The translations under genes and the position numbers were made by a program. Of a DNA stretch of 32,000 nt, positions 4,395-30,035 are shown in pieces. The stretch comes from Ignicoccus pacificus DSM 13166 (lineage in GTDB: Archaea > Thermoproteota > Thermoprotei_A > Sulfolobales > Ignicoccaceae). The stretch lies in the NCBI GenBank assembly GCA_025340205.1, contig CP006868.1:930001-962000 (forward strand), given 5' to 3'. The stretch's first letter is position 1. Every line of letters starts with the position of its first letter. A model generated the notes under the pieces. The model had not been told where the DNA came from. It was given only the letters and a program-made list of their open reading frames with translations, and ran no database searches.

Positions 4395-6320
4395 ATGAAG
4401 ATAACACGAAGGGTGGATAGTGTGAAGAAGCTGGCATTCCTTCTGGCTATCCTATTCATTGGCACCACCCTACTCGCCGCCAAGGGACTAGCGACCCCCG
4501 CTCTGCTGCAGAAGCTAGAGGCCGAGGGCAAGGTCAGCCCTCAGACCCAAGCGTGTCTAGCGTGCCACATGAGGGTCACCCCCGGCATAGTGATGGACTG
4601 GCTGAACAGCAAGCACGCCCTCAATCCTCCTGCTAACGTCGAGAAGCTCTATGAGGCCATCGGTGCCGGACCTCAGCCCATAGCCAAGAAGTTCCAGAAC
4701 TACAAGTATGTGGTTGGATGCTATGAGTGTCACGGAATGTACAAGGTCAAGGACAGGGTCGACGCTGTAAACCACTTCGGCTTCAAGATAGTGACCATAG
4801 TCACCCTACAGGACTGTAGCCAGTGCCACCCCAAGGAGGCCAAGGAGATCAGCTGGACTTGGCACGCCTTTGCCGCCCTGAACACCAACCTGAATCCTTG
4901 GTACAAGAAGATAGTCAAGTATGCTAAGGACCACAACGAGATGGACATGCTACCTCCGGTGTTCAAGCTAACCCACAAGGGACTGATCACTTGGCAGTGG
5001 TACAAGGACTACGCTAAGGCTCTATACGACTACCTAAACGGCAAGCCTGTGAGCGCCAAGTGGATGAAGTACATCAAGCTCTTCGGTACTCCTTATGACT
5101 ACGACTTCAAGAACATCGTCAGCCCGCTATACCCTGCTAGCGGTGGACTAAACACCACTGTAGCTGCCAAGGTAGGTTACAAACCCACCATAGGTGCCGT
5201 CTGTGCTGTTGGTAAGTGGAACTACTATGAGCAGATTAGCAACCCCATGAGCCACCCGATGTTCAAGAACGCCTATGCCTACCACGCCTGCTACGAGTGC
5301 CACGGTACCCTAGTGGTGCCCTACAAGACTGAGACCAAGATGATCAAGGGCTTCCCCGTCACTAGGATGGACTACTGGGGCTGGCCCAGCAACGGAGCTG
5401 GAAGGATTGACCCCGACGGAAGCCTAGGCACTTGTACTGCTTGCCACCCCAGGCACAGCTTCAGCGTGGCTCAGGCTAGGGAGCCTTGGACTTGTGGTCA
5501 GTGCCACCTAGGATATGACCACCCGCACATTGAGATCTATGAGGAGAGCAAGCACGGAAACATCTATGACGCCAACAAGGAGAAGTGGAACATGGAGGCC
5601 ATACCTTGGAAGGTCGGCACTGACTTCAACGCACCCACTTGTGCTACCTGCCACATGAGCACCATCGCTAGCCCCGACGGAAGCCAGATACTAGTGAAGG
5701 GTACCCACGACCTAAGGGCCAGGCTAGTGTGGGACCAGATGCACTTCTTCACCTACCCGAAGGCCGACTACCCAGACAACGTGCAACTAGCTGTGATCAA
5801 GGGCGTAAGTGTGCTAACTGGTGCTAACATACAGAAGGCCGTCAGCGGAGGGTTCAAGGTGATACCCGGACCCAAGGCCGGAGAGCTAGCCTTCCCGAGG
5901 CTAGCTACCATCAAGTACTACGGTGCCCTAGCCCAGAAGAGAGCTGCTATGGAGAAGGTCTGTACCCTATGCCACAGCACCCAGTGGACTAAGAACTTCT
6001 TCAGGACCGCTGACCAGAACATGATAGACTATGACATCGTGGCCCACTATGCCTTCGACCTACTGAAGAAGGCTTGGAAGGAGGGCATCCAAGATCCTCA
6101 CAACAAGCTAGACGAAGTAATGGAGGTCGAGTGGTACTACATCTGGCACCACCAGGGCAGGAGGTGGAGGAACGGAGCCTTCATGATGGGACCCGACTTC
6201 GCCCACTGGTTCGGTATAGTCGACACTGTCATGGAGGCCCTCAACAGGATGCTAGGATACTACCAGATGGCCAAGGAGGTCAAGATGCTACAGACTCAGC
6301 TACAAGCCCTAGCCAAGTAA
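4395..6320 (+). CDS. exported octahaem c-type cytochrome, hydroxylamine-oxidoreductase (HAO)-like family
   Basis: Eight canonical CxxCH motifs: aa 54 CLACH, 109 CYECH, 141 CSQCH, 299 CYECH, 347 CTACH, 367 CGQCH, 416 CATCH, 523 CTLCH. N-terminal signal/anchor KKLAFLLAILFIGTTLLAAKGLA. Size and haem spacing resemble HAO-type octahaem proteins. The start could be 4395, 4413 or 4422. Confidence 0.9.
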   Translation: MKITRRVDSVKKLAFLLAILFIGTTLLAAKGLATPALLQKLEAEGKVSPQTQACLACHMRVTPGIVMDWLNSKHALNPPANVEKLYEAIGAGPQPIAKKFQNYKYVVGCYECHGMYKVKDRVDAVNHFGFKIVTIVTLQDCSQCHPKEAKEISWTWHAFAALNTNLNPWYKKIVKYAKDHNEMDMLPPVFKLTHKGLITWQWYKDYAKALYDYLNGKPVSAKWMKYIKLFGTPYDYDFKNIVSPLYPASGGLNTTVAAKVGYKPTIGAVCAVGKWNYYEQISNPMSHPMFKNAYAYHACYECHGTLVVPYKTETKMIKGFPVTRMDYWGWPSNGAGRIDPDGSLGTCTACHPRHSFSVAQAREPWTCGQCHLGYDHPHIEIYEESKHGNIYDANKEKWNMEAIPWKVGTDFNAPTCATCHMSTIASPDGSQILVKGTHDLRARLVWDQMHFFTYPKADYPDNVQLAVIKGVSVLTGANIQKAVSGGFKVIPGPKAGELAFPRLATIKYYGALAQKRAAMEKVCTLCHSTQWTKNFFRTADQNMIDYDIVAHYAFDLLKKAWKEGIQDPHNKLDEVMEVEWYYIWHHQGRRWRNGAFMMGPDFAHWFGIVDTVMEALNRMLGYYQMAKEVKMLQTQLQALAK

Positions 6321-6339: not shown

Positions 6340-8256
6340 TTAAGACGACCTACCCTTCCTATTCCTCCAAGCTCCTTCAGCTAGTCTCTGTACCACTTCT
6401 TTATGTGGTCTCTGAGATCTCTTCCAAGCCTTAGGGTTGTTGTAAAGCAGCGTAGCGAAGAGTCTGTCCGCTACTATATCTGCTGAAGGACATAGGTACA
6501 TGCAGAGCCTACACCCCTCACAAGCGTTCGGATCAGCTAAGACCGGCCTGGTTTCACCTTTTTCTTCTATTACCTTAATCGCGCCAGTGGGGCACCAAGT
6601 TTCGCAGATTCTGCAGCCGGCACAAGCGTTGGAGCTATGTACTACCCTTAGGGCTTCAAACGCCTCTTCTATTCCTTTCACCTTAGGGGAAACTATTACT
6701 CTATCTTTGTAGAACTCATATCTCCCCCTTGGTCCCTCTATTATCTGGCCCCTCCTCTCCGTTCCCAGCAATTTGGCTAGCTCAAGGGCCTTTACTTTAT
6801 CGTACTTTAATTTTAAGATAATTTTCTTTACTCTCTTCTTTTCCCTTATCACTTTATAATCTAAGAGCTTTACCTTAGATTGTCTCTTCTTGTACTCCTC
6901 CTTCCAATCTATGGTTTCACCGGCCTTTGAGGCCAAAACCTCTTTAGGATGCTCGGGGGCCAACCACCTCCAGCCCCCTCTAATCCACCATTTACCGTAT
7001 CCGAGCCTCTTCCTCCATTTTTCTAAAACATTCTCCCATCTCTCCCAGAGCTCTGGATGAAGTCTCTTTACGAGCTCGTACTCCCATTGGGTAGCTCCAG
7101 GACACATGAAACAGCCGACGCGATCGAAACCCTTGAAGTAGAGCTCGTTGAGAGGAACGTTCCTGTCAATCAAGTACGCTAACTCCAGCAGCTGAGGCCA
7201 AGGTAGTATAGGACTGACAGTGGTTACCGTTGGGAAGTACTTCATCTTCATTATCGGCGGTGTCCTAGATCTCTCTAAGCTCTCCCACCATCTATTGCCC
7301 ACGAAGTTTGTGACGTTCTCATACCTCTTCATGAACCTAGCTATGGGACCTAACTTGAGTACCTTACAGCACCATCGAAAATCTCTAGCGGGTGGAGAGA
7401 AAAGGTCTACAGCTCTCCAGAACCTGTCCTCTGCTGAAGCTATCTCAAGCTTCATATTGAAAAATCGCGCTTCCTCCTCTACAGTTTTTATTGTCTCCGG
7501 AAGTTCTATTCCAGTATCATTGAACAGTAAGATAGCATCCATATCGTATTCCTTGAGAAGTTGAGCCACCAGAGCGGAGTCCTTCCCCCCAGACAGCGAA
7601 AGTATGGGAGTTCCTTTAGGAGCCCTCTTCAGTACCTCGAAGCTCCACTCTCTGAGTTCCTCGATGAAACGCTCATTCGCCTTTAGGATATCCTTTAAAT
7701 CTTGCTTCCTCGTGCTGAGCGCCCCTCTTCTGGGATGTTTCCAGACCTTGTCGACTCTCAACTTCCCTCTTTTCGGAATGGCTATTCCGACGACCTTGCC
7801 TTCAGAATCCACTAAAGCGACTTGCTTGTTCCCCTTCCCCACGACATCTCCAGGCCTTGGATTATCCACCTTTATGGAATTGATGTAGCCGCGCTCTAAA
7901 GCCCTTAGAGCACCTAAGTACCCTAATCTTATTCTCCACTTGCCAGCCAATGGGTCGTATAGCGCTCTAGCCAAGATGTCTCCATCTACAATTATCTGGT
8001 AAGCGTGATCGACGTAGGATGTTCTATTAAGAAAGACCATTCTCCCTTCAGTTAGCTTTTCCCACGAACCCTTCCCTACCTCCTCATCAAAGGCATTGGA
8101 GAGGTATTCGTAATCTCCTTCCCAAGCGATCCTCAAGTCTCTAGGCTCAAATAAGCTGAGTCTGAGTGCTCCTTCACAGTCCTCCCTCCTGAACACTGGC
8201 ACGTTGAGCTCTGGGCACCAGAAGACCTCCAGCTCTCTTTGCCACTTCCTCTTCAT
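6340..8256 (-). CDS. PAPS/APS reductase-family PP-loop protein with an N-terminal PUA-like region and a C-terminal 2x[4Fe-4S] ferredoxin domain
   Basis: PP-loop LSLSGGKDS (aa 220-227). Fe-S type APS-reductase cysteines WCCKVLKLGP (C296-C297) and GCFMCP (C382, C385). C-terminal CAGCRICETWCP and CEGCRLCMYLCP. The N-terminal segment PRPGDVVGKGNKQVALVDSEGKVVGIAIPK looks PUA-like. No ECG(L/I)H catalytic tail. Confidence 0.85.
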   Translation of the reverse strand: MKRKWQRELEVFWCPELNVPVFRREDCEGALRLSLFEPRDLRIAWEGDYEYLSNAFDEEVGKGSWEKLTEGRMVFLNRTSYVDHAYQIIVDGDILARALYDPLAGKWRIRLGYLGALRALERGYINSIKVDNPRPGDVVGKGNKQVALVDSEGKVVGIAIPKRGKLRVDKVWKHPRRGALSTRKQDLKDILKANERFIEELREWSFEVLKRAPKGTPILSLSGGKDSALVAQLLKEYDMDAILLFNDTGIELPETIKTVEEEARFFNMKLEIASAEDRFWRAVDLFSPPARDFRWCCKVLKLGPIARFMKRYENVTNFVGNRWWESLERSRTPPIMKMKYFPTVTTVSPILPWPQLLELAYLIDRNVPLNELYFKGFDRVGCFMCPGATQWEYELVKRLHPELWERWENVLEKWRKRLGYGKWWIRGGWRWLAPEHPKEVLASKAGETIDWKEEYKKRQSKVKLLDYKVIREKKRVKKIILKLKYDKVKALELAKLLGTERRGQIIEGPRGRYEFYKDRVIVSPKVKGIEEAFEALRVVHSSNACAGCRICETWCPTGAIKVIEEKGETRPVLADPNACEGCRLCMYLCPSADIVADRLFATLLYNNPKAWKRSQRPHKEVVQRLAEGAWRNRKGRSS

Positions 8257-8307: not shown

Positions 8308-9456
8308 TTAGTGAACAAAGGGATCCTTGAACGATAACACTACCTTAGCTACCTCCGGCCTCATCATGTACTCCGGAGGCATCCTTCCCTCCATTATCAT
8401 CTTCCTTAGCTTAGTTCCGCTTATCCTTATCCTATATTCTTCTGGGTGAGGACATATCTTCTCGTTCACCATACCTCCGCACTTCTTGCAGTAGAAGGCC
8501 TCCCTCACGAAGAGGGGCGTTATCCCTAGATCCGGGAAGTTCTTGAAGATGTCCCAAGCCTCATAGGGACCGTAGTAATTACCTACCCCGGCGTGGTCCC
8601 TTCCCACTATGAAGTGGGTCGCTCCGAAGTTCTTCCTGACTATGGCGTGGTGAACCGCTTCCCTGGGCCCGGCGTACCTCATCTCCATCCTAAGGATCGA
8701 GAAGGCTACTACTCCCTTTGGATAATAGTTCTCTATGAGCGCCTCATAGGCCTTGATTATTACTTCATCCTTGAAGTCTCCCGGTTTCTTCCACCCGACT
8801 AAGGGGTTAATGAACAAGCCGTCGGTGAAGGTAAGGGCAGCCTTCTGGATGTACTCGTGGCCCCTGTGAGGCACGTTCCTGGTTTGGAACGCAGCTATCC
8901 TCTTCCAGCCCCTCTCGAGGAAGAGCACCCTCGTCTCCTTGGGCCACAAGCGATACCTCTCGTACGGCTCCGGCAAGTCCTCTATCTGAAGGACGTCCCC
9001 TCCTATTAGGTAATCCTTCCTCTGGAAGGTCTTCTTGACTCCGGGGTGGTTTATATCATCCGTCTTGAAGACCTTTCTGGAGTATTCCCTCTTGTCCCAG
9101 GGGTAGATCTCCTCAACTCTCATTATCGCTATGGGCTTGTCCTTATAGAAGAGAGCTATTTCATCCCCTTCCTTTATCCTATTCTTGAATTCTTCGTCTA
9201 CGTCCAATATTATTGGAATGGTCCAAGGTAGGTCGTTGGTGAGCCTCATTTGATCTAAGACGCTCTGATAGTCGTCCCTAGTTAGGAAGCCCTCCAAAGG
9301 AGAGTAGACGCCGTGGGCTATGTTGGCGATGTCAGCAGCTAAGCCCTCCGTGAGGTCAACCCTTTCCATCTCCATAGCCTCTTTCATTAGCCTTTCCTTT
9401 GACTTCTCGCTAACAGTTCTATCGATAAGCTTACCTCCGTGAGGCTTGGATACCAT
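8308..9456 (-). CDS. sat: sulfate adenylyltransferase (ATP sulfurylase)
   Basis: Motifs QTRNVPHRGHEY, HFIVGRDHAGVG and N-terminal KPHGGKLI. I prefer start ATG 9456, which has GAGGTG 8 nt upstream. Track start GTG 9465 is 3 codons longer. Confidence 0.92.
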   Translation of the reverse strand: MVSKPHGGKLIDRTVSEKSKERLMKEAMEMERVDLTEGLAADIANIAHGVYSPLEGFLTRDDYQSVLDQMRLTNDLPWTIPIILDVDEEFKNRIKEGDEIALFYKDKPIAIMRVEEIYPWDKREYSRKVFKTDDINHPGVKKTFQRKDYLIGGDVLQIEDLPEPYERYRLWPKETRVLFLERGWKRIAAFQTRNVPHRGHEYIQKAALTFTDGLFINPLVGWKKPGDFKDEVIIKAYEALIENYYPKGVVAFSILRMEMRYAGPREAVHHAIVRKNFGATHFIVGRDHAGVGNYYGPYEAWDIFKNFPDLGITPLFVREAFYCKKCGGMVNEKICPHPEEYRIRISGTKLRKMIMEGRMPPEYMMRPEVAKVVLSFKDPFVH

Positions 9457-9468
9457 GGAGCCCACACC

Positions 9469-9681
9469 TCACAAGTACCCCTTCTCCTTTAACCTCTTCA
9501 CTATCTCCTCCCTCTCCTCTTCAGAAACTCCAGCGCTGAAGATCTCTTCTTCGACCTCGCTGACCCTCTCTCTAAGTAACCTTACCAAGAGCTCGTTTAC
9601 GTCTTCGCAAGAGATCTCCTTACACAGCTTCTCGACCCTAGTGTAGAGCGATTTTGGAATAAGCACTTGTACGCTCTCCAA
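9469..9681 (-). CDS. small ribbon-helix-helix (CopG/Arc-like) protein with an acidic C-terminal half
   Basis: N-terminus VQVLIPKSLYTRVEKLCKE..VNELLVRLLRERV fits a beta-strand/helix/helix pattern. The only in-frame starts are TTG 9681 and GTG 9666. Its TGA stop overlaps the SD of sat. Family call is by eye only. Confidence 0.45.
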   Translation of the reverse strand: MESVQVLIPKSLYTRVEKLCKEISCEDVNELLVRLLRERVSEVEEEIFSAGVSEEEREEIVKRLKEKGYL

Positions 9682-9734
9682 AGCACTCTCCCTTCGGTCT
9701 GGGATAGGTAGGAGCCAGTTAAAGCGAAGTGAAT

Positions 9735-10511
9735 TTATTCAAACAAGTCAAGTAATCTGGAATACTCTCGTTCAAATCCATGTTCCCTCGCTATCTTTAG
9801 GAAAAGATTTTCCAGTTTTGTATCGTCATAGACTCTAATCCTCAAGGGATTGTTTTTGATGAACTCTGTAAATCGAGGAAGTTTGTAGAAACTTTCTTCT
9901 TTATTGTAAATGATCAATTTGTCTTCACCTACGGCCTCTATAGCTTCTATGTTTGAGAAGGTCCATACCATCAAGAACCATCCTTGAAGGCTTGAAGGTC
10001 TTGGTATATTCCTTATTACTGAATAAACCTTGGCCATCTTCGCCAAAGGATCTAAGGGCTGAAGCAACTTAGCTATAATACCTAGCTTCTCTCCTATCCT
10101 CAGGTACTTTCCATAGGTCGTTCCGCTGTGGAACAGATTCTTGAACGAATGGTAAACTGAGACGGGGTCTCTAATTATGTGATAGACGTCCCAATGTTCC
10201 TTAATCCAGTCCTTTCCCAAGAATCGATGCAAGGTAGTCTCCTTGATCGGATAGCCTCTCAACCCCTCCATGAATTTCCTTAGAGTTTCCTCATTATGGA
10301 AGAACCAAAGGGTAGTATTCACAGAAGGATCCGTGAGATATGGATGATAGTAGCTAAACCACTTCGCGAGCTCCGGTATTCTCTTAATAGTGCCTTTAGG
10401 AGTAGCTAACGGCTCGTACACCACTCTCCCATAGAGCCACTCCAAGTATCTGGAGAGATACGTAGTCCCCGACCTAGGAAATCCATTTATCATGATGGGC
10501 TTTTCCGTCAC
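9735..10511 (-). CDS. sulfotransferase family protein (PAPS-dependent type)
   Basis: N-terminal 5'-PSB loop INGFPRSGTTYLSRYL, then a 3'-PB-like IIRDPVSVYHSF. Soluble, 258 aa. Start is GTG 10511 or ATG 10493. Confidence 0.7.
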   Translation of the reverse strand: MTEKPIMINGFPRSGTTYLSRYLEWLYGRVVYEPLATPKGTIKRIPELAKWFSYYHPYLTDPSVNTTLWFFHNEETLRKFMEGLRGYPIKETTLHRFLGKDWIKEHWDVYHIIRDPVSVYHSFKNLFHSGTTYGKYLRIGEKLGIIAKLLQPLDPLAKMAKVYSVIRNIPRPSSLQGWFLMVWTFSNIEAIEAVGEDKLIIYNKEESFYKLPRFTEFIKNNPLRIRVYDDTKLENLFLKIAREHGFEREYSRLLDLFE

Positions 10512-10549: not shown

Positions 10550-11104
10550 TTATCTTAGTTTTCCGAGGTCGCTAAGGTAAGGCTCTGATGTGGCCACTTT
10601 TATACACTTCCTATAATGTTCTTCGTCAAGTAGACCCAATTTGTAAGCTAGATCACAAAAGCAGTGAGATCTTGGATTGTACTTGCCGTCAGAGAGCACA
10701 TATTTCATGTGTTCTCTCAGTGACTCTTCGCTGCACTTCTTGCATTCCTCGCTGCACTCTAGCTTTCTATGAAGAAGTGCCACCGGAGTCATTATGGCTC
10801 CCACAAACCTCTTCCTCTCAATAAAAGTAGGTCTTCTCCAGTAAGGATTAGTTTCATATGTGCTTTTCGACACGAGCTTCTTAGTATCGTAGTATCCTAA
10901 GAGAACCGCTAGAGGTGTGTAAATCAGGAAGAAGAGACCTAGGAATTCGGGAAAACTCAAATACTTTCTTAAGGAAGTAAAATACCAAACAAGCGAGGCA
11001 GTATTAAATAGTGATATTAAGAAGGTAAAATAGTTAGTCATACCAAATCTCATATAGACATAGATCCTTAGCAATTTCCTTATTATCATCTTCGCGTTAG
11101 GCAC
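10550..11104 (-). CDS. uncharacterised 2-TM membrane protein, paralog B (Cys-rich C-terminal domain)
   Basis: Basic N-terminus, two hydrophobic helices (YFTFLISLFNTASLVWYFTSL and FLGLFFLIYTPLAVLLGYY), NPYWRRP, then CSEECKKC (CX3CX2C), HCFCD and KC. AGGTGGGA lies upstream of GTG 11104. Similar to the adjacent gene. Confidence 0.55.
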   Translation of the reverse strand: MPNAKMIIRKLLRIYVYMRFGMTNYFTFLISLFNTASLVWYFTSLRKYLSFPEFLGLFFLIYTPLAVLLGYYDTKKLVSKSTYETNPYWRRPTFIERKRFVGAIMTPVALLHRKLECSEECKKCSEESLREHMKYVLSDGKYNPRSHCFCDLAYKLGLLDEEHYRKCIKVATSEPYLSDLGKLR

Positions 11105-11116
11105 GAGGTCCCACCT

Positions 11117-11713
11117 CTATCTATACTCAGATCTTTCTTTAACGAACTTTAAATACTCCTCCACTTGTCTCTCATCGAAGCCTATATGTACAAGAAGTTT
11201 CTTTATGCAATCGTCAGAGGGTTTAGGGCCCCTTACTACTACATCGAAGGAACTTTCATAGAGCCAATCTACAACTGCTTGAGCGGCCTCTTTGTAACAC
11301 TCCTTTAGCTCTCCTTCTGTGCCTTCAGCCATTGCTACTATAAAGGGTAAATCTATAGAAGTGAAGGTTAATTCTCTCACTACTTTCCATGGAGGTTTAT
11401 ACCAATAGACATTCTTCTCAATTATCTTTCTCTGCGTTCCTGCGTTAAGATCAATCCATCCCAACATTACGGATAATACCACTAAGATAATTATAACGGC
11501 TAGTGTTACGTATATCTTCATGGCTCCTTGGATCCCTATTGCTGGAAGCACGACTCCTTGGAGGAGTACTATTGCATTTATCGCTGTGAGCAAGAAGGCA
11601 ACGTAATTCATGTGAGTTACTCTAAGATATACGATGATATCAAAGTATTTTGACTGGTAGATTGATCTGCCGATTTTTCTAAGAAAAGAGTAGAACTTGG
11701 ATTTAATTTGCAT
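11117..11713 (-). CDS. uncharacterised 2-TM membrane protein, paralog A
   Basis: Same layout as 10550-11104: basic N-terminus, HMNYVAFLLTAIN (compare MTNYFTFLISLFN), LGWIDLN (compare LGYYDTK), NVYWYKPP (compare NPYWRRP) and C-terminal IGFDERQVEEY (compare LGLLDEEHYRK). ATG start with GGTG 6 nt upstream. Confidence 0.55.
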   Translation of the reverse strand: MQIKSKFYSFLRKIGRSIYQSKYFDIIVYLRVTHMNYVAFLLTAINAIVLLQGVVLPAIGIQGAMKIYVTLAVIIILVVLSVMLGWIDLNAGTQRKIIEKNVYWYKPPWKVVRELTFTSIDLPFIVAMAEGTEGELKECYKEAAQAVVDWLYESSFDVVVRGPKPSDDCIKKLLVHIGFDERQVEEYLKFVKERSEYR

Positions 11714-19995: not shown

Positions 19996-21195
19996 TTGAA
20001 CGTAAAGGTCGTCAAGGAAGACGATGTAGAGATAAGGGCTCTCAACTTTGAGAAGTGTAAGAGCGCGGAACTCGTATCAATCAGCGTTTACTTCAACGCC
20101 GCCAGAAGTGAGAAGAGGAAGGAATTAACTATAAGAGCATTGAGAAGTTTTATTGATATTGAGATAGAAAACCATGCCTTAGTCTTAGTGGATAATGGTT
20201 CCATCGATTCCACTATAGAAGTGCTGATGGATGAGGTTTTGAGAAGCGGATCCGAGAAGTGTGTATTAATAGTAAGGTTGCCCAAGAACTTGGGATTTGC
20301 CAGAGCAAATGAAATAGGGTATAAGTTGGCAAAAGGTCTATCAAAGCAGATGAAATACGTTGCATTGATAAACGATGATGTGGTTGTTGATGAGAAGAAG
20401 TTTAAAGAATTATATAGGATATTGGAGGACACGGACGTCTGTGGTGTTCAGGGAATATTGCTCCATCCTACCGGAAAGCTAGACAGTGCCTCCCTCTATT
20501 TCTCTCCATTGCTCGCATACGGAGGAACTGTAGGATCAGCTGAGTATCTTCCAGCATTGGCCCTCTTTCCAAGTTTTACCTCGTATCTCGACGGTGCTTT
20601 ATCGATATATAATGAGGAGTGTCTTAAAGGAAAGCTCTTCGAGCCTTATTGTTTCATGTACGGAGACGATTACGAGCTCGGAACGAGATTGACTTCAGAG
20701 AATGGGAAACTTCTATTCGTGCCTATAGTTGTGGGCACTCATCATAGGGGCCTCACGAGGACCTCCTCCACAGAACTTCATCGTAAGATAATGTGGTGGG
20801 GCGGATTTTGCTCCTCGAGCCTCTCCATGTCGCTTATCAATGTCCCTAAGTCTTTATTCTTCTTAGAACTCCTTTTGAGAAATTTTTCGATAACGATGGT
20901 AATCGCACTGAGCAAAGTAGGTTTGTTCAAGAATATCAAAGAATTAGTACGATTAAATAAATCTTTCATGGAGGGTTCACTTTTCGCTCTTTTCAGACCA
21001 GCGCCGTTTAGGAGAAGAAAGAGTGTCTTGTTGGAACCAAATGTGATCGAAATGATTTCTTCGCTTTCCCTTAGCGTGATTCCAGCTTGCTTCGTGTGTA
21101 GGCTCTTCCCTCCATGGAAGAGACTTAGAAGACTTTTAAGAGAATTAGAGAAAACGATTCACCCCTTATCCTCCGGAGAGCGGAGAGAGGCATAG
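19996..21195 (+). CDS. family 2 glycosyltransferase (GT-A fold) with a hydrophobic C-terminal half
   Basis: Motifs VSISVYFNAA, LVLVDNGSIDST, GFARANEIG, ALINDDVVV and GDDYELGTRL. No in-frame ATG precedes these motifs, so a TTG/GTG start is required. Confidence 0.8.
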   Translation: MNVKVVKEDDVEIRALNFEKCKSAELVSISVYFNAARSEKRKELTIRALRSFIDIEIENHALVLVDNGSIDSTIEVLMDEVLRSGSEKCVLIVRLPKNLGFARANEIGYKLAKGLSKQMKYVALINDDVVVDEKKFKELYRILEDTDVCGVQGILLHPTGKLDSASLYFSPLLAYGGTVGSAEYLPALALFPSFTSYLDGALSIYNEECLKGKLFEPYCFMYGDDYELGTRLTSENGKLLFVPIVVGTHHRGLTRTSSTELHRKIMWWGGFCSSSLSMSLINVPKSLFFLELLLRNFSITMVIALSKVGLFKNIKELVRLNKSFMEGSLFALFRPAPFRRRKSVLLEPNVIEMISSLSLSVIPACFVCRLFPPWKRLRRLLRELEKTIHPLSSGERREA

Positions 21196-21548
21196 GGATC
21201 TTCTATCCTCACCCTCTCGTTGAGGGGCTGCGTGGAGACCTCAATCAACCTGACGTCCTCCAATGCTATGAGTTGATGTACTGTGTATGGTTCTATGGTT
21301 ATTTCCTCACCCTCCTGAACCAAGAACTCGTTGGGACCACTTCGTACCTTTAAGGTACCCTTATCGACGTATATGGTCTCCTTCTTCTGTCTATGGTAAT
21401 GGACGCTGGTGCTGTAGCCTTTCTTTATTTCTATTATCTTACCGCCATACTCGGGTTCATCAGCTATCCAGATCTCCCTACCCCAAGGCTTTTCTACTAC
21501 CTTTACCCTCTTGACGTTTTCTTGACTCAAGTACTTTAGTTCATCCAA
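21159..21548 (-). CDS. cupin-domain protein, type II phosphomannose-isomerase-like
   Basis: VVEKPWGREIWIADEPEYGGKIIEIKKGYSTSVHYHRQKKETIYVDKGTLKV...HQLIALEDVRLIEVS is the typical ManC-type cupin pattern. TTG start. Confidence 0.7.
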   Translation of the reverse strand: MDELKYLSQENVKRVKVVEKPWGREIWIADEPEYGGKIIEIKKGYSTSVHYHRQKKETIYVDKGTLKVRSGPNEFLVQEGEEITIEPYTVHQLIALEDVRLIEVSTQPLNERVRIEDPYASLRSPEDKG

Positions 21549-21599
21549 GGGATCTGCACCGCTGAAGCCTTCGCAGAAGGGAAATAATACTCTAGGACC

Positions 21600-22325
21600 T
21601 CAGAGGAATATCCTCAGTAAGTTGAGTATAGAAGCCAATAGGAGCAGACCTTCTATCATCCTCTCATCGCTCTTGACCCTCTTCAAAAGCTTAGGCGCGA
21701 TTGTGAGCGAAAGGAGTGAACCAGCACTCATGAGCAAGACCGCTCCGAAGTCAATACCCTTCATAGCACTCAGGTAACCCAAGGCTGTGGTTAGGGTAGG
21801 TATAAGCTTCAGCAAGGGTGTCATCGCTATGGCATTTTTCAAGTCAACGTTGAATATTGTCTGAATAGTAACAAATATTATCGAAAGACCTCCACCGACG
21901 GTGCTCTTATCTAGAGCTGCTATTAGGGCGAAAAACGAGAGCACGTATCTGCTCCTTATCCACACCCTCTTCCTTATTTCAAGCACGGCTAAAGCGGCTA
22001 GTAAAGTCAAGGAATACAGAACTCTTCTTTCTATTATAGACATTGATAGAATAAAGAACGGTAATATGAACGAGAGGACCGAGGTCATCGCTATGAATAC
22101 CAATACGGGCCAAGGTATGCTTAACGATACGTTGCCCTCTCTTAAATGGGCGATGAAGGCGGGGATGAGGGTAAGTAATTGAGAGAAGACGATAACGCTT
22201 ACCGCTTGCTTAGGGTCCATTCCTAATATAGGTACAAGGATTAGCGAGGCGGTGAGGCCGTACCCTAACGCTAATGTGTAATCCAATAAGCCCGCCACGA
22301 AGCCAATCGCTAGCCACGTCAGCAT
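21600..22325 (-). CDS. TauE/SafE (TSUP) family anion permease
   Basis: Polytopic protein with an internal duplication. N-terminal IGFVAGLLDYTLALGYGLTASLILVPIL and second-half LDKSTVGGGLSIIFVTIQ resemble the G-rich TSUP repeats. ATAAAAG TATA-like box about 35 nt upstream. Confidence 0.65.
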   Translation of the reverse strand: MLTWLAIGFVAGLLDYTLALGYGLTASLILVPILGMDPKQAVSVIVFSQLLTLIPAFIAHLREGNVSLSIPWPVLVFIAMTSVLSFILPFFILSMSIIERRVLYSLTLLAALAVLEIRKRVWIRSRYVLSFFALIAALDKSTVGGGLSIIFVTIQTIFNVDLKNAIAMTPLLKLIPTLTTALGYLSAMKGIDFGAVLLMSAGSLLSLTIAPKLLKRVKSDERMIEGLLLLASILNLLRIFL

Positions 22326-22428
22326 TCTTCCTCACAAGCCCCTCCTAGGATTAGCTTTTATCGACCTCCGAAGGTGTGAGACACAAACCGAGAAAGCACA
22401 TGAAGTCCACAGAGCCTCCGATGTCGGT

Positions 22429-22992
22429 GTGATCGAAGTGAAGTGCTTGGAGAAGGCTCCGGTAATCTGGTTGACGGGCTTGCCGGGCAGCGGAAAGAGT
22501 ACCTTAGCTAAGAACGTAGCCAAGAAGCTAAAGGAAATGGGCTACAAGGTGGAGGTGCTCGATGGAGATTGGGTAAGGAAGACGATCAACCCCGACGCGG
22601 GGTACACCAAGGAGGAGAGGGCTAGACATTTGAGGAGGGTCGCTTGGATAGCTAGGTTGTTAGCTAGGAACGGAGTCATCACCTTGTGCTCCTTCGTATC
22701 TCCCTATAGAGAGGTAAGGAGACAGATAAGGGAGATAGTGGAGGAAGAGGTACCCTTCTACGAGATCTACGTGAAGTGTCCGGTGGAGGAGTGCATCAAG
22801 AGGGATCCTAAGGGTCTGTATAAGAAGGCCTTGAGGGGAGAGATAAAGCACTTTACTGGAATAAGTGATCCCTACGAGCCTCCCGAAAATCCCGACTTAG
22901 TGATCGATACCGTTAACGAGAGCGTGGAGGAGAGCACCGAGAAGTTATTGAGGTTCGTTTTAGATAAAATATCTAAACTCTCAGAGGAGTAA
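22429..22992 (+). CDS. cysC: adenylylsulfate (APS) kinase
   Basis: Motifs IWLTGLPGSGKSTLA, VLDGDWVRK, FVSPYREVR, DPKGLYKKA and FTGISDPYEPP. GTG start; there is no in-frame ATG before the P-loop. Confidence 0.92.
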   Translation: MIEVKCLEKAPVIWLTGLPGSGKSTLAKNVAKKLKEMGYKVEVLDGDWVRKTINPDAGYTKEERARHLRRVAWIARLLARNGVITLCSFVSPYREVRRQIREIVEEEVPFYEIYVKCPVEECIKRDPKGLYKKALRGEIKHFTGISDPYEPPENPDLVIDTVNESVEESTEKLLRFVLDKISKLSEE

Positions 22993-22998
22993 TTTTTC
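22993..22998 (+). terminator. oligo-T tract (TTTTTC) immediately after the cysC stop
   Basis: Read directly (taa 22990-22992, then tttttc) in the 20-nt gap to the convergent uL23 gene. Confidence 0.3.
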
Positions 22999-23012
22999 TG
23001 AATACAAATAGG

Positions 23013-23276
23013 TCATATCAATCCTATCCTGCTTGCTACGTCCGCGGCCTTGTACTCCTTGCTCAGCTTTACGTAAGCCTTCTTCTCTCCCTCTGGGGTG
23101 ATCATGGTATTTACTTTCTCTACCTTAACTTCATACATCTCCTCAACAGCCTTCTTTATCTCTGGCTTGGTAGCATCCCTTCTAACTATGAATGTCAACG
23201 TGTTGTTGCTCTCTATTAACGCTATCGCCTTTTCGGTGTGTACAGGCCTTATTATGATCTCTTCCGGGCTCCTCAT
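23013..23276 (-). CDS. rpl23: 50S ribosomal protein uL23
   Basis: [50 protein letters not shown] is the typical archaeal L23. ATGA overlap with the uL4 stop. Confidence 0.93.
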
Positions 23277-25875: not shown

Positions 25876-26442
25876 ATGCCGTTCCTCGAGTTCAAGAGGC
25901 TCGACATCCCTGACGTAATACTCGTAACTCCCAAGGTCTTCCCAGATCAGAGGGGCTATTTCAAGGAGATATGGAAGAGGACCCCCTTCCTAGCGGAGGG
26001 GATACCTTACGACTTCGTTCAAGCAAACGTCAGTATGAGCAAGAAATACATCCTTAGGGGGCTCCACTATCAGCTCAAGCCTTCCGAGATGGGTAAGTTA
26101 GTAACCGTGCTAAAAGGAAGAATATTCGACGTAGCGGTCGATATAAGGAAGGGATCCCCTTACTATGGGAAATGGGTAGGTGTGGAGCTCAGCGAGGACA
26201 ACCACAAGCTACTGTGGATCCCTCCAGGCTTCGCCCACGGCTTCCAAGCCTTAGAGGACGATACAATAGTTTTGTACCTAGTCACGAAGGAGTACGACCC
26301 AGAGAGGGACGCTTGCATGAGGTGGGATGACCCAGAAATAGGGATCGAATGGCCATACCCGGATAAGGCCATCTTGAGTCAGAAGGATTCCAAGTGCCCT
26401 CCTCTTAGGGAGGCTCCCAATAACTTCACCTACCCTATATGA
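25876..26442 (+). CDS. rmlC: dTDP-4-dehydrorhamnose 3,5-epimerase
   Basis: Motifs DQRGYFKE, QANVSMSKKYILRGLHYQ, KLVTVLKGRIFDVAVDIRKGSPYYGKW and WIPPGFAHGF. Confidence 0.92.
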   Translation: MPFLEFKRLDIPDVILVTPKVFPDQRGYFKEIWKRTPFLAEGIPYDFVQANVSMSKKYILRGLHYQLKPSEMGKLVTVLKGRIFDVAVDIRKGSPYYGKWVGVELSEDNHKLLWIPPGFAHGFQALEDDTIVLYLVTKEYDPERDACMRWDDPEIGIEWPYPDKAILSQKDSKCPPLREAPNNFTYPI

Positions 26443-26454
26443 GGTGTTTTGAAG

Positions 26455-27366
26455 ATGAAGCTTCTGGTCCTCGGCGGGGCGGGCGTCACAGGGAAGCGAG
26501 TGGTCGAGATAGCCCTGAATAAAGGAATGGAAGTTTATGCCACTTATCGACATACCCCTCCTCCGAAGAGCTTGAGAGACGCCAACTGGCTCAAAGCCGA
26601 TGTCGATGAGATAGATACTATTAGAAAACTTCTGAACGAATTAAAACCTGAAGCTGTAATAGATATGCATGCTTACAATAAGGTGGATGATTGTGAGGAC
26701 GTTGGTAGGGAGGACTGTTGGAGAACGAATGCCATGTCTCCCGGGTTGTGGGCGAGGGAATGTTCAAAGAAAGGCATTAAGTACGTGTGGGTGAGCACAG
26801 ACTTCGTCTTCGACGGTGAAAATCCCCCTTATGCAGAGGGGGACGTTCCCAGACCTCTCTCTCAATACGCTGTTAGCAAGCTGGTAGGGGAGCAGAGAGC
26901 CTTGCTAGAAGGAGCGATAGTGCTGAGAACAGCAGTTGTGTACGACTCCGACCCTAGGAGCAAGTTCCTAGGATGGGTTATTAGGAGACTGGCCGAGGGG
27001 AAGGAGGTTCCGGCGTTCGTGGATCAATGGAACAACCCTACTTGGGCGAAGGCGTTGGCTCAAGTTTCGATAGAAGCTCTAAGGTTGGAGGGGCCGAAGC
27101 TCCTTCACGCCGTCGGAAAGGAATGCATGAGTAGGTATGAATTCGCTAAGGCGGTCGCGAGGGCTATGGGTTACAGCGAGAACTTAGTAAAACCCTCGTG
27201 CTCATGTGAGATAAAGCAAAAGGCTAGGAGACCCAAGAGGAATTGTCTACTCACCGAAAAACTAAAGGAGAAACTAGGGGTGGAGATACCGTCGCCAAGG
27301 GAAGTGATCAAAGAAATATCGAAGGAGCTTAAGGAAACTTACTTGAGCTCCAATGAGCTCTCTTGA
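26455..27366 (+). CDS. rmlD: dTDP-4-dehydrorhamnose reductase
   Basis: Motifs MKLLVLGGAGVTGKRV (Rossmann), VSTDFVFDG, YAVSKLVGE and DQWNNPTW. I prefer ATG 26455 (GAGGTG 8 nt upstream) to track start TTG 26449. Confidence 0.85.
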   Translation: MKLLVLGGAGVTGKRVVEIALNKGMEVYATYRHTPPPKSLRDANWLKADVDEIDTIRKLLNELKPEAVIDMHAYNKVDDCEDVGREDCWRTNAMSPGLWARECSKKGIKYVWVSTDFVFDGENPPYAEGDVPRPLSQYAVSKLVGEQRALLEGAIVLRTAVVYDSDPRSKFLGWVIRRLAEGKEVPAFVDQWNNPTWAKALAQVSIEALRLEGPKLLHAVGKECMSRYEFAKAVARAMGYSENLVKPSCSCEIKQKARRPKRNCLLTEKLKEKLGVEIPSPREVIKEISKELKETYLSSNELS

Positions 27367-28412
27367 GCGGCCATCATCTTTATTATTGTCCTTAAACTCG
27401 GATCTACGTACACTTGGGACTTCATTCCGATAATACTATCTATCATCCTCGAGACTCCTAAATTCAACGAGGCCTCATCCAATATCAACGACCTGGATAT
27501 GGATCCTCCTTGAACCCTAGAACCTCTCTCCAAGTCCACGTAATGCTCTATTACGGAATCCGGACCTACTACGACGCCCTCTCCTATGTAGGCAGGGCCG
27601 TAAACCTTACCCTCTATTATCGCTCCCTTCTCTACGTAAACATTTCCTATTACCTCCCCCTTGACCTCTCCGAGTATCTTTGGCTCCTTCAAGTACATAT
27701 CCATTAGTATTATCATTGCTTCAATGAGATCCTTCGGCTTTCCGGCATCCTTCCACCACCTCTCTATTGTAACAAAGCCTATCTTCTTGTTATTCTTTAT
27801 GTAGCAGTTAATGATATCGGTTATTTCATACTCTCCTCTAGCGCTCGGTTTCAATGTAGAGAAACACTTCATGTACTCCTCTGGATCTCTAAAGTAATAG
27901 AGACCGATGAGGGCGTACTGAGAAGGAGGCTCCTTCGGCTTCTCTACGAATCCCACTATCTTTCCATCTTTGATTATCGCTACACCAAACCTCCTAGGAT
28001 CGGGTACTTTGGCTAGGAAGATAACGGAATCATAGTCCTCTTTTTCAATTAGCTTCTTGAACTTAGGCACCCATTCCTCATCTATTATATTGTCTCCCAA
28101 GTATACGATGAAGTCCTCCTTGAGGTCTCTTTCCTTGATTACCAAGGATATTGCATGAGCTATGCCCAATCTCTCCTCTTGAGTTACGTAATCTATCTTA
28201 ACTCCTAGGAACTCGTTTCCTAGTCTCTCCTTGAAGGCGAAGCCCAGCCATCCGACTACTAGGCTCACCTCGTTTATTCCAAGCCTCTTGAGCTGCTCTA
28301 TTCCATATGCGAGAAGGGGCTTGCCTAGGAGGGGGATTAGGGGCTTTGGCAAGGAGAAGGTTATAGGCCTTAACCTCTTACCCTCTCCAGCAGCTAAGAT
28401 GATGCCGTGCAT
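27339..28412 (-). CDS. rmlA: sugar-1-phosphate nucleotidylyltransferase (glucose-1-phosphate thymidylyltransferase-like, long form with C-terminal left-handed beta-helix)
   Basis: MHGIILAAGEGKRLRPITFSLPKPLIPLLGKPL, LGDNI and EKPKEPPS. The C-terminal hexapeptide-repeat region is GEVIGNVYVEKGAIIEGKVYGPAYIGEGVVVGPDSVI. The symbol is tentative. Confidence 0.85.
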   Translation of the reverse strand: MHGIILAAGEGKRLRPITFSLPKPLIPLLGKPLLAYGIEQLKRLGINEVSLVVGWLGFAFKERLGNEFLGVKIDYVTQEERLGIAHAISLVIKERDLKEDFIVYLGDNIIDEEWVPKFKKLIEKEDYDSVIFLAKVPDPRRFGVAIIKDGKIVGFVEKPKEPPSQYALIGLYYFRDPEEYMKCFSTLKPSARGEYEITDIINCYIKNNKKIGFVTIERWWKDAGKPKDLIEAMIILMDMYLKEPKILGEVKGEVIGNVYVEKGAIIEGKVYGPAYIGEGVVVGPDSVIEHYVDLERGSRVQGGSISRSLILDEASLNLGVSRMIDSIIGMKSQVYVDPSLRTIIKMMAAQESSLELK

Positions 28413-28435: not shown

Positions 28436-29638
28436 TTATGGAGATGATAAAGGTTGGATTTCATTCATAAGTCTCTCCAAGTCTTTAGTGAAGTTCTCTG
28501 CCAGTTTCCTCCTCTTGAACCTCTCGGGAAATTTGAAGCAATATTCGGGAACGTCTGCCTCTAATGCGTTGTTTATTGCCTCCTTCCAGCACCTCGGTGA
28601 CATAGGGTCCTTAACGAAGAAGATGCAATCTTCAGGATAGATTTCGGTAAAGGGAGGTATCCTCGGGAGGACAACCTTTGTCCTCAAGCTCAGAGCTTCT
28701 AGCGGCGGAATCCCAAAGCCCTCTGCTAAGGTGGGAAATACAAACGCCCTAGAGACGCTTATCACAGAAACTGAGACCGCGTCCGGTGGACACCTTATCA
28801 CTTTTAGATCGACGTTGCTCGGCACGGAGGCTTTTACCAACTCGAGCTCATCCTCCCTAAAACATCCCATTAGTACGAACTCAAAGTTATTATCAATAAG
28901 AGATAGACCATCGAGCATTCTAATAAGCGGGTAAAGCCTCTTTGGTTCCAACGATCCTAAGTAGCTGAGCGTGCTCCTTCCGCTTATACCATAGGTCCTC
29001 AGAATTCTCTTCATGGTCTGTACGTCAAGCCTAGGTAAGTCCCTTAGTGGAGGAGGAAAGAGCAAGTAGGGTTTGTTTACGTTTAGTGCCTTTCTCAACT
29101 GCTCGTAAGTATGTTTAGTTGAAACTATGAGGGCATCGGAAGCCTCTATAGAACTCTTCAACACCTTTAGTATTCCTTCAACTCTTGAGGAATCAAACAA
29201 CTTCATGCGGCTCAGCTCTAACGGTACCAAATCATATATTATGCTTAGTTTCAGTTTCGCCTTTTGTTTTGAGAACATCTTTCTCAAAGAATAGGCATGG
29301 CGTGCTAGGATGAATACGCCTTCGTTAAGTTTGTTCTTTTTGATAAACAATGCTCCCTTAATCATCAACTGAAGTGAAGTTAGACCCAAGGATATCTTTT
29401 GGACGGAGTTGGTTACTTTAGGAGCACTCACAATCAACGCGTCTTCACTGATCTTCTTGAGTTCCTTTAGTCTTCGTCTGTTCGTCTCGCTCGCGTAACC
29501 GAAGGGGGAATCCTCAACGATGAAGAAAATTTCGTGGCCTACCTCTTTCAGTCCCTTAGCCATTTCCAAAACGTGAAGGAACTGACCGGCGGAGGACCTC
29601 GTGCTAATGAATATCGTAAACTTTGTTCGAAGACTCAA
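28436..29638 (-). CDS. GT-B fold glycosyltransferase (GT4/GT1 family)
   Basis: C-terminal FVFPTLAEGFGIPPLEALS (EX7E-type motif) and N-terminal FISTRSSAGQFLHVLEMAKGLKEVGHEI. TTG start. Confidence 0.8.
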   Translation of the reverse strand: MSLRTKFTIFISTRSSAGQFLHVLEMAKGLKEVGHEIFFIVEDSPFGYASETNRRRLKELKKISEDALIVSAPKVTNSVQKISLGLTSLQLMIKGALFIKKNKLNEGVFILARHAYSLRKMFSKQKAKLKLSIIYDLVPLELSRMKLFDSSRVEGILKVLKSSIEASDALIVSTKHTYEQLRKALNVNKPYLLFPPPLRDLPRLDVQTMKRILRTYGISGRSTLSYLGSLEPKRLYPLIRMLDGLSLIDNNFEFVLMGCFREDELELVKASVPSNVDLKVIRCPPDAVSVSVISVSRAFVFPTLAEGFGIPPLEALSLRTKVVLPRIPPFTEIYPEDCIFFVKDPMSPRCWKEAINNALEADVPEYCFKFPERFKRRKLAENFTKDLERLMNEIQPLSSP

Positions 29639-29645
29639 GGGCTCT

Positions 29646-30035
29646 TCAGTCCCTACTCACGCCTAGGAGAAGCGGATAGATAGCTGTTCCCTTGACCTTT
29701 CTCACCTTTTCAACAACGTCCTTAACCTTTTCTATTTCACCCTTTAGCATTGCAGTAATTATGTACGACTTACCCTCTTTTGATATACAGAAAGAGGAGG
29801 TTAGCGACGAGACCAATTCTATGAGTTGTTGTAACGAAGAGCCGCTATGCACAATTACCAAAACCATCAAGCCTTTCGAGGAACCTCCTTCGATGAGCGA
29901 TAAGTAGCCTATGAACGACCTTATAGCTATCTCTATGAGCTTGGACCTGCTCACGCCTAACGCGCTGGCTCCTCTTTCCAGCTCTTCCAACAAGTCTTTC
30001 GGTATCGATATGCCGAAGCGCACCAACTCAGTCAT
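29646..30035 (-). CDS. NikR-family regulator (RHH DNA-binding domain plus ACT-like C-terminal domain) without recognisable nickel ligands
   Basis: MTELVRFGISIPKDLLEELE...SRSKLIEIAIRSFI is a typical NikR/CopG N-terminus. The C-terminal ..AMLKGEIEKVKDVVEKVRKVKG parallels E. coli NikR [22 protein letters not shown] (from memory). The C-terminal domain holds only 1 His and 1 Cys. Confidence 0.65.
   Translation of the reverse strand: MTELVRFGISIPKDLLEELERGASALGVSRSKLIEIAIRSFIGYLSLIEGGSSKGLMVLVIVHSGSSLQQLIELVSSLTSSFCISKEGKSYIITAMLKGEIEKVKDVVEKVRKVKGTAIYPLLLGVSRD

Follow-up and report, generated by a model that had tools for sequence, protein, structure and literature searches.

Why sulfide-rich, sulfur-respiring archaea retain sat, cysC, and a phosphatase for 3'-phosphoadenosine 5'-phosphate (PAP) is an acknowledged question (PMC8268124, PMC10322725). 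It is posed in concrete form by a 32,000-nt stretch of the genome of Ignicoccus pacificus DSM 13166 (Desulfurococcales, Thermoproteota), hereafter the window, which carries sat and cysC together with the gene of a 258-aa protein annotated as a hypothetical protein (IPA_05445, 100% identity; hereafter ST258). A preliminary description of this DNA had read ST258 as a sulfotransferase in one gene string with a small ribbon-helix-helix (RHH) gene, sat, and a gene of the family of reductases acting on 3'-phosphoadenosine 5'-phosphosulfate (PAPS), and had proposed that PAPS may serve sulfation here and not only assimilation. Its guess of a sulfur-respiring hyperthermophile with little need for assimilatory sulfate reduction agrees with the genus: I. 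hospitalis, the sequenced species, grows in the laboratory solely via H2 oxidation and S0 reduction, with sulfide as the product (PMC2614490), and sulfate metabolism is not a topic of its genome paper. We consider it moderately probable that ST258 is a divergent cytoplasmic PAPS-binding sulfotransferase of a small family whose members sit on archaeal contigs, most likely sulfating a sugar hydroxyl of a glycoconjugate.

Fold and PAPS-binding motifs of ST258

An AlphaFold2 model of ST258 built from a 20-sequence alignment reached a predicted local distance difference test (pLDDT) score of 91.2 and a predicted template modeling score (pTM) of 0.88; the single sequence yielded a pLDDT of 38 and an unusable model, and the alignment-based one was used instead. 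When this model was compared to the PDB with Foldseek, ranks 1–28 were all PAPS-dependent sulfotransferases (probability 0.82–1.00), led by the schistosome SULT-OR (8E5Q, 4MUA; E = 5.6e-5) and including the Alicyclobacillus acidocaldarius protein 3RNL, SOT16, SULT7A1, SULT1A1, CurM-ST, SULT2A1, and SULT1A3. Further sulfotransferases, among them 3-OST-5 and Cpz8, appeared lower in the list, where the first P-loop kinase stood at rank 31 (E ~0.03), i.e., the structure did not lead to a non-sulfotransferase P-loop family, an outcome the preliminary description had named as fatal to its proposal. From the predicted structure, we conclude that the sulfotransferase fold of ST258 is genuine, although the protein diverges strongly from other members.

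The family around ST258 is small. When 1.84 billion cluster representatives (50% clustering) were searched exhaustively with HMMER, 22 proteins were recovered at E < 1e-3, while a word-indexed search of 5.8 billion proteins returned ST258 itself as the sole match. Carriers of the family include the complete metagenome-assembled genomes GCA_054016895.1, GCA_054005295.1, GCA_054017055.1, and GCA_054011835.1. Both stretches previously taken for PAPS-binding signatures, GFPRSGTTYL (residues 10–19) and IIRDPVSVYHS (residues 112–122), proved to hold the best-kept residues in the alignment of 20 members, which are 25–45% identical to ST258: R13, S14, G15, and T16 are kept in 18/18 members possessing the N-terminus, K90 and R114 in 20/20, and P116 and S122 in 19/20. 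With the R/S/G/T loop, K90, R114, and S122 among the most conserved positions of the family, neither motif is a match by chance, and the conservation of R13, K90, R114, and S122 at this level of identity indicates purifying selection on a PAPS site. The family consensus IIR-H-P-x-D-x3-S corresponds to the canonical 3'-phosphate-binding motif R-x-P-x-D-x3-S, and K90 precedes R114 by 24 residues, just as K106 precedes R130 in human SULT1. Pfam Sulfotransfer_3 was matched by half of the aligned members (10/20, E < 0.01), and a precomputed PF13469.13 match stands on the record of ST258 itself, plus a UniRef name. Scanned directly, ST258 gave PF00685 (Sulfotransfer_1) at E = 0.076 and no NCBIfam match.

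In the model, the loop P12-R13-S14-G15-T16-T17 comes directly after strand 6–10, and the 3'-phosphate-binding motif spans the end of strand 108–113 and the start of helix 116–128. By this arrangement, the loop would bind the 5'-phosphosulfate, R114 and S122 (from the next helix) would bind the 3'-phosphate, and the invariant K90 would act in catalysis together with E91 or H95. ST258 lacks a Walker-A GK[ST], a transmembrane segment, and a signal peptide, and has a pI of 9.3; the absence of the first two and the basic pI therefore argue for a soluble cytoplasmic enzyme. With its PRSGTT 5'-phosphosulfate-binding loop, R-x-P-x(D)-x3-S motif, solubility, and length of ~260 aa, the protein resembles the PF13469/PF00685 superfamily, but it differs from known members in that the catalytic histidine is not invariant, the Pfam match covers roughly the first 30 residues, and the family is tiny. 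W183, N187, and Y202, in the C-terminal half, are specific to the ST258 family.

Two other leads were discarded. Matches to RecA concatemers in a phmmer search of ST258 against the PDB were spurious, built from ~4 bits per stretch summed across repeats. A viral or mobile origin of ST258 was rejected after three tests without a match: tblastn in 50,697 phage records, a search for relatives in IMG/VR, and PHROGs and PADLOC scans, the latter also negative for the two neighboring membrane proteins TM184 and TM198 described below.

Genomic contexts of the family and the likely acceptor

Six independent genomic contexts were recovered for ST258-family members (loci used for comparison carry L numbers), and glycosyltransferase (GT) genes lie in or beside three of them, the sole recurrent neighbor class across the family. 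One context (L032, L033, and L037) is a co-directional series of a DUF2079 gene, a 198-aa gene, a GT4, the ST258 homolog, and a 383-aa multi-pass membrane protein. Another (L034) consists of two GT2 genes, a GT4, and a 708-aa GT-C-like membrane protein, followed by an overlapping ST258 homolog, and in a third (L036), the homolog is convergent with a GT4 and a methyltransferase. GT neighbors are missing from the remaining three: EF-1alpha, the homolog, SBP_bac_1, and a CitMHS permease (L026/L027); radical SAM, the homolog, and a geranylgeranyl-reductase family gene (L028, L029, and L035); and a helix-turn-helix gene, the homolog, and DUF2208 (L030/L031), with a CDP-archaeol synthase gene ~6.4 kb off in L030. 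These contexts of the closer relatives of ST258 show no conservation among themselves.

The GT4 of L036 (2125–3330) scores 27.0 bits against a cutoff of 26 for the Pfam family "GT4 in conflict systems", and a weak type I restriction-enzyme-like match lies nearby. The L036 context is possibly a mobile or defence island rather than an envelope-glycan locus.

Taken together, the GT-associated contexts suggest as acceptor a lipid-linked oligosaccharide, a glycolipid, or a polysaccharide precursor, which would be sulfated on the cytoplasmic side of the membrane. The suggestion applies at the level of the family and is weaker for ST258 itself, because the GT-linked members are found on low-GC contigs and the closer relatives of ST258 on contigs of 45–49% GC. 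Sulfated N-glycans are known in Halobacterium and Thermoplasma, and the archaeal sulfotransferase candidates are reported as uncharacterised in a 2024 review (PMC11625862), in line with the earlier remark that no crenarchaeal PAPS-dependent sulfotransferase was known to be biochemically characterised.

Gene string and sulfate-activation cluster

Seven co-directional open reading frames occupy the minus strand from 12890/12878 to 6340, with successive gaps of 10, 12, 38, 53, 3, and 51 nt, reproducing the 3–53 nt given in the preliminary description. The features of this string, and those of the window that bear on sulfate activation or glycan synthesis, are as follows (GT and Rml genes assigned from Pfam/NCBIfam family scans).

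12890/12878–11724, minus strand: LysJ, a class-III aminotransferase
11117–11713, minus strand: TM198, an orphan small membrane protein of 198 aa with hydrophobic segments at 36–93
10550–11104, minus strand: TM184, an orphan small membrane protein of 184 aa with one hydrophobic segment at 49–72
9735–10511, minus strand: ST258, the divergent sulfotransferase-fold protein (fold, motifs, family conservation)
9682–9734, minus strand: 53-nt spacer between ST258 and RHH70, with a TATA-like TTTAAC at 9723–9718 and a GGGAG Shine-Dalgarno-like motif
9469–9681, minus strand: RHH70, a predicted CopG-type RHH protein of 70 aa, conserved upstream partner of sat
8308–9465, minus strand: sat, ATP sulfurylase with PUA_2 and ATP-sulfurylase domains (NF003166, PF01747)
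6340–8256, minus strand: 638-aa PP-loop/PAPS_reduct-superfamily Fe-S protein whose C terminus forms a 2x[4Fe-4S] ferredoxin domain
4395–6320, convergent with the 638-aa gene: multihaem cytochrome c gene (~640 aa)
19996–21195, plus strand: GT2
21159–21548, minus strand: small cupin gene, accompanying TauE in the closest relatives
21600–22325, minus strand: TauE/TSUP permease (Pfam TauE, E = 1.1e-15), divergent from cysC
22429–22992, plus strand: cysC, kinase of adenosine 5'-phosphosulfate (APS) (Pfam APS_kinase, E = 6.1e-63)
25876–28412: RmlC/RmlD/RmlA
28436–29638: GT4
29646–30035: second CopG-type RHH gene, 129 aa (RHH_1, E = 3.9e-8, clearly over threshold)

Both enzymes of PAPS synthesis are well supported. 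Sat scores 548.8 bits against a cutoff of 387 for NF003166 (PF01747, E = 2.3e-95) and is 66–83% identical to its Desulfurococcales orthologs; CysC is 80–81% identical to the CysC proteins of L001, L002, and L007, where the gene lies within a compact cluster with sat. Since both genes are intact in the window, PAPS can be made, as had been supposed. Pfam and NCBIfam scans also bore out the location of cysC and TauE ~12 kb from sat, amid glycosyltransferase and NDP-sugar genes.

The arrangement in relatives explains this distance. In metagenome-assembled genomes of Desulfurococcales, a conserved cluster comprises a cupin gene (not always present) and TauE, divergent from an RHH gene, sat, in some cases a DHH-family pAp phosphatase (pApase), a ~445-aa Phosphodiest protein, cysC, and a second small RHH paralog. 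It is contiguous in L001, L002, L007, and L010 (e.g., L002 7470–12157, L010 8167–13537), and in L002 and L007 TauE is transcribed divergently from RHH-sat. L002 is the closest of the relatives inspected in detail; there, the cluster directly adjoins the ribosomal protein genes L23/L4/L3, and so does the cupin-TauE-cysC remnant of the window (21159–23276), which thus still marks the ancestral position; its cupin is 81% identical to the TauE-adjacent cupin of L002, and L007 has one as well. RHH70-sat now lies 12 kb from TauE-cysC, i.e., the contiguity of sat, cysC, and TauE is lost. Other members of the cluster were not recovered here: tblastn of the L002 Phosphodiest protein against the window gave no match, none of the window open reading frames scanned with Pfam matched a DHH family, and the second small RHH paralog was not found in the window. 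The juxtaposition of ST258 and sat results solely from relocation of CopG-sat out of an ancestral CopG-sat-(pApase)-phosphodiesterase-cysC-TauE cluster.

This cluster was published in 2021 for Pyrococcus yayanosii (PYCH_17520–17570: CopG, ATP sulfurylase, DHH pApase, type I phosphodiesterase, APS kinase, TauE) and other archaea, including I. hospitalis, with the DUF81/TauE gene noted and the RHH70 equivalent called a CopG factor (PMC8268124). The CopG-sat/cysC/TauE module is therefore a described archaeal cluster, here split. Like that of P. yayanosii, the window has a CopG/RHH gene 3 nt upstream of sat and a divergent cysC/TauE pair; unlike it, the I. pacificus version is separated by 12 kb and has a sulfotransferase-fold gene upstream of CopG instead. 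The most constant partner of sat is the ~445-aa alkaline-phosphatase-superfamily protein (L002 10083–11420; Pfam Phosphodiest, E = 3e-43), orthologs of which occur at a further 14 sat loci (L001, L003–L010, L012–L014, L016, and L020). It could be an enzyme handling PAPS or APS; degradation of pyrophosphate by it is a speculation in the literature only. A reductase is never part of the sat-RHH-Phosphodiest cluster.

Only 3 nt separate the end of RHH70 from sat, and a homolog is found directly upstream of sat in ~16 of 25 sat loci obtained by scanning GTDB species genomes. Its assignment to the CopG-type RHH proteins is supported by a family profile that matches the RHH domain of P. horikoshii NikR (E = 4.9e-4), with weaker matches to RelB, E. 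coli NikR, and Arc, in keeping with the RHH gene of the preliminary description, and a regulatory role is probable. Single members of the family reach 16.5–17.4 bits for Pfam RHH_1, under the 20.5 cutoff, and share an acidic linker followed by an invariant C-terminal RL+xLGYL tail; a match of this tail to the C-terminus of the APS kinase structure 7YQ0 was not significant (E = 0.45). The closest RHH70 homolog (56% identity; L026 14310–14516) is not linked to sat; it precedes a Csa3_N gene, and P0003, the closest ST258 homolog on a long contig (42–44% identity; P0002 scores marginally above it in the HMMER search), is 3.5 kb away. The case for a joint acquisition of ST258 and RHH70, both with best homologs on L026, is weak, because the two L026 genes are on opposite strands 3.5 kb apart, RHH70 resembles sat in composition, and the L026 organism is distant (its GlutR is 41% identical to that of I. 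islandicus).

Composition and spacers divide the string further. G+C content at third codon positions (GC3) is 0.60 for LysJ, 0.397 for TM198 (the lowest of the window), 0.449 for TM184, and 0.50 for ST258, followed by 0.65 for RHH70, 0.68 for sat, and 0.54 for the 638-aa gene. TM184 and TM198 are paralogs (blastp, E = 1e-8) that matched nothing in Pfam, NCBIfam, PHROGs, or PADLOC, and were possibly acquired together with ST258; as general co-travellers of the ST258 family they were rejected, no homolog being present in any other family locus. The spacers before TM198, TM184, and ST258 carry Shine-Dalgarno-like GGTG or GGGAG motifs only (GGGAG in the 38-nt spacer between TM184 and ST258) and no TATA-like box, which suggests a single LysJ-TM198-TM184-ST258 transcript. 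The 53-nt spacer, by contrast, is probably the promoter of RHH70-sat itself, as judged from a TTTAAC/TTAAC box that precedes the start of the RHH gene by ~35–45 nt in the window, L001, L002, and L007. A scan for sigma-70 promoters and intrinsic terminators was ignored as inapplicable to an archaeon.

Homologs of ST258 or of the 638-aa protein adjoin sat in 0/25 loci from relatives, and the upstream neighbor of the 638-aa ortholog is a hydantoinase gene in I. islandicus (L039) and an ROK gene in a metagenomic relative (L040), not sat. From the synteny of sat, these ortholog neighbors, the GC3 segments, and the TATA-like box of RHH70, the seven-gene string is a recent, I. pacificus-specific mosaic and not a conserved functional unit, which weakens the interpretation given in the preliminary description. 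Named proteins of I. hospitalis and I. islandicus gave no ST258 relative among the homolog matches, which makes ST258 seem an accessory gene in I. pacificus; it probably shares a transcript with TM198 and TM184. Its operon-like link to sat is a lineage-specific juxtaposition, and coupling at the operon level is not supported; the metabolic link, i.e., a PAPS producer and a putative PAPS consumer in one genome, is real.

Elsewhere in the window, Rfam and tRNA scans found nothing. The GT2 and cupin open reading frames overlap by 37 nt at their convergent 3' ends (21159–21195), and the second RHH gene stands directly upstream of, and co-directional with, the GT4, making it a possible regulator of the adjoining glycan and rhamnose genes.

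Competing explanations and significance

The 638-aa protein bears on an assimilatory reading of the string, in which sat, cysC, and this protein would make sulfite for cysteine, with ST258 a bystander. The protein carries a PAPS_reduct domain (126.9 bits) and two 4Fe-4S motifs, its gene lies 51 nt downstream of sat, and its CC...CxxC Fe-S ligands align with the ECC and GCAPC of the M. tuberculosis APS reductase 7LHR (E = 3.8e-7). Archaeal homologs with extra Fe-S domains also group with M. jannaschii enzymes for which reduction of APS or PAPS is reported, but such homologs are found in many genomes lacking sulfate activation (Yu et al., PMC6286981). Every curated CysH/APS-reductase model fails on the protein (NF002537, 57.2 vs 154 bits; TIGR00434, 42.9 vs 165.1; TIGR02055, 42.2 vs 235.3; TIGR02057, 31.9 vs 254.2). 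Its motifs are a canonical ATP-type PP-loop SGGKDS at 222, CC at 296, and CFMC at 382, and no ECG was found anywhere in its sequence, ECG[LI]H being the C-terminal catalytic cysteine motif of CysH. The best library score belongs to BrxP (153.8 bits), SspD matches at E = 7.5e-16, and many homologs have a classical PUA domain. Hence the superfamily placement made in the preliminary description stands and the more specific CysH identity does not.

Judged by its sequence, the 638-aa protein can be assigned to the superfamily only and probably does not function as a PAPS reductase; it may be an enzyme of the nucleic-acid thiolation type, and probably stands outside any sulfation or assimilation unit. 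With BrxP, SspD, and DndC it shares the PAPS_reduct-superfamily domain, the SGGxDS PP-loop, and the cysteine ligands, but its gene is a conserved chromosomal one outside BREX, Ssp, or Dnd operons, and the protein adds a ~200-aa N-terminal region and the C-terminal ferredoxin domain. The gene is convergent with the ~640-aa multihaem cytochrome gene in 3/3 genomes (the window, L039 10001–13904, and L040 10001–13836), and I. islandicus also retains the Rce1 and thermosome genes past the cytochrome gene. Considering in addition that no sulfite reductase is present within the window, that the 638-aa gene adjoins sat in none of the other loci, and that the genus lives on H2 and S0 and makes sulfide (PMC2614490), we regard an assimilatory unit as improbable.

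Somewhat less remote, though still unlikely, is that ST258 is a sulfotransferase acting on something other than a glycan, such as a lipid head group, a small metabolite, or TM184/TM198. The probable co-transcription with TM198 and TM184 (gaps of 12 and 38 nt), their common low GC3, the lipid or transport genes next to the closer relatives (geranylgeranyl-reductase in L028 and L035, SBP_bac_1 and CitMHS in L026, the more distant CDP-archaeol synthase in L030), and the small-molecule specificity of the top structural matches (schistosome SULT-OR and cytosolic SULTs) would all fit, but TM184/TM198 homologs are absent near every other family member, the contexts of the closer relatives are unconserved, and glycosyltransferases are the only neighbors to recur. 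We find it very improbable that ST258 is a sulfotransferase-fold relic or a kinase-like P-loop protein whose adjacency to sat is coincidental and which has no part in sulfation. The Pfam score under threshold, TM-scores below 0.5, the lack of ST258 among the named I. hospitalis and I. islandicus matches, a GC3 as low as that of other accessory genes, and the unconserved adjacency could be read in this way; against it, a Walker-A GK[ST] is missing, the loop (PRSGTT) is of the sulfotransferase type, R13, K90, R114, and S122 are the most conserved residues despite 25–45% identity, and kinases rank below 28 sulfotransferases.

The preferred reading, a cytoplasmic sulfotransferase acting on a glycoconjugate with PAPS supplied by sat (8308–9465) and cysC (22429–22992), has several observations against it. 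As to the protein, the Pfam Sulfotransfer_3 match (PF13469.12) reaches 26.8 bits for a cutoff of 27.0 and covers residues 5–33 only, TM-scores to solved sulfotransferases are 0.44–0.48 at 14–18% sequence identity, and no member of the family is characterised. The aspartate at R+4 is present in 13/20 aligned members and replaced by S118 in ST258 itself, and neither E91 (17/20, plus one D) nor H95 (16/20) is invariant. The best match of the family profile among PDB sequences, SULT1A3, was not significant (E = 0.24) and served for register only, the loop falling on PKSGTTW, the 3' motif on RNPKDVAVS, R114 on R130, and S122 on S138. As to the context, sat or cysC is near family members in 0/6 cases, the GT-linked members are distant and on contigs of 28–30% GC, the closer relatives (L026, L028, and L030; 45–49% GC) having no GT neighbors, and no sulfated compounds are known from Ignicoccus. 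Finally, many relatives keep sat-cysC without ST258, which therefore cannot be the general reason for the clade to make PAPS. The value of the finding is limited accordingly: the superfamily is well known, the placement beside sat is unconserved, and PAPS synthesis in relatives lacking ST258 is not explained by it.

That PAPS is used for sulfation is plausible, and the idea is not new, since the PAPS of the archaeal cluster was proposed in 2021 to possibly feed sulfotransferases (PMC8268124), a route listed as 1c in PMC10322725. Methanothermococcus thermolithotrophicus likewise begins with archaeal PAPS synthesis by sat and cysC and has a DHH-type PAP phosphatase, but in that organism a dissimilatory-type APS-reductase-like enzyme and Fsr reduce PAPS, neither of which is encoded in the window, and the study states explicitly that it found no sulfotransferase (PMC10322725), whereas the I. 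pacificus window has a sulfotransferase-fold gene. What is added here is structural and family-level support for IPA_05445 being sulfotransferase-like, the recurrent glycosyltransferase neighborhood of its family, and the demonstration that the ST258-sat adjacency is an I. pacificus-specific rearrangement and not a conserved operon. ST258 thus offers a small soluble candidate enzyme with defined residues (R13, K90, R114, and S122), and since I. pacificus alone of the three Ignicoccus species appears to carry the gene, the genus lends itself to a comparison of sulfated glycolipids or glycans. More far-reaching, and rather doubtful at present, is the prospect that the ST258 family represents the first PAPS-dependent sulfotransferases of Thermoproteota and sulfates envelope glycoconjugates; the PAPS made via the widespread CopG-sat-pApase-cysC-TauE cluster in sulfide-bathed hyperthermophiles would then serve sulfation and not assimilation, the move of CopG-sat next to the transferase would be an early step toward a dedicated sulfation operon, and the unusual Ignicoccus outer membrane would carry the product, a sulfated glycolipid or glycan.

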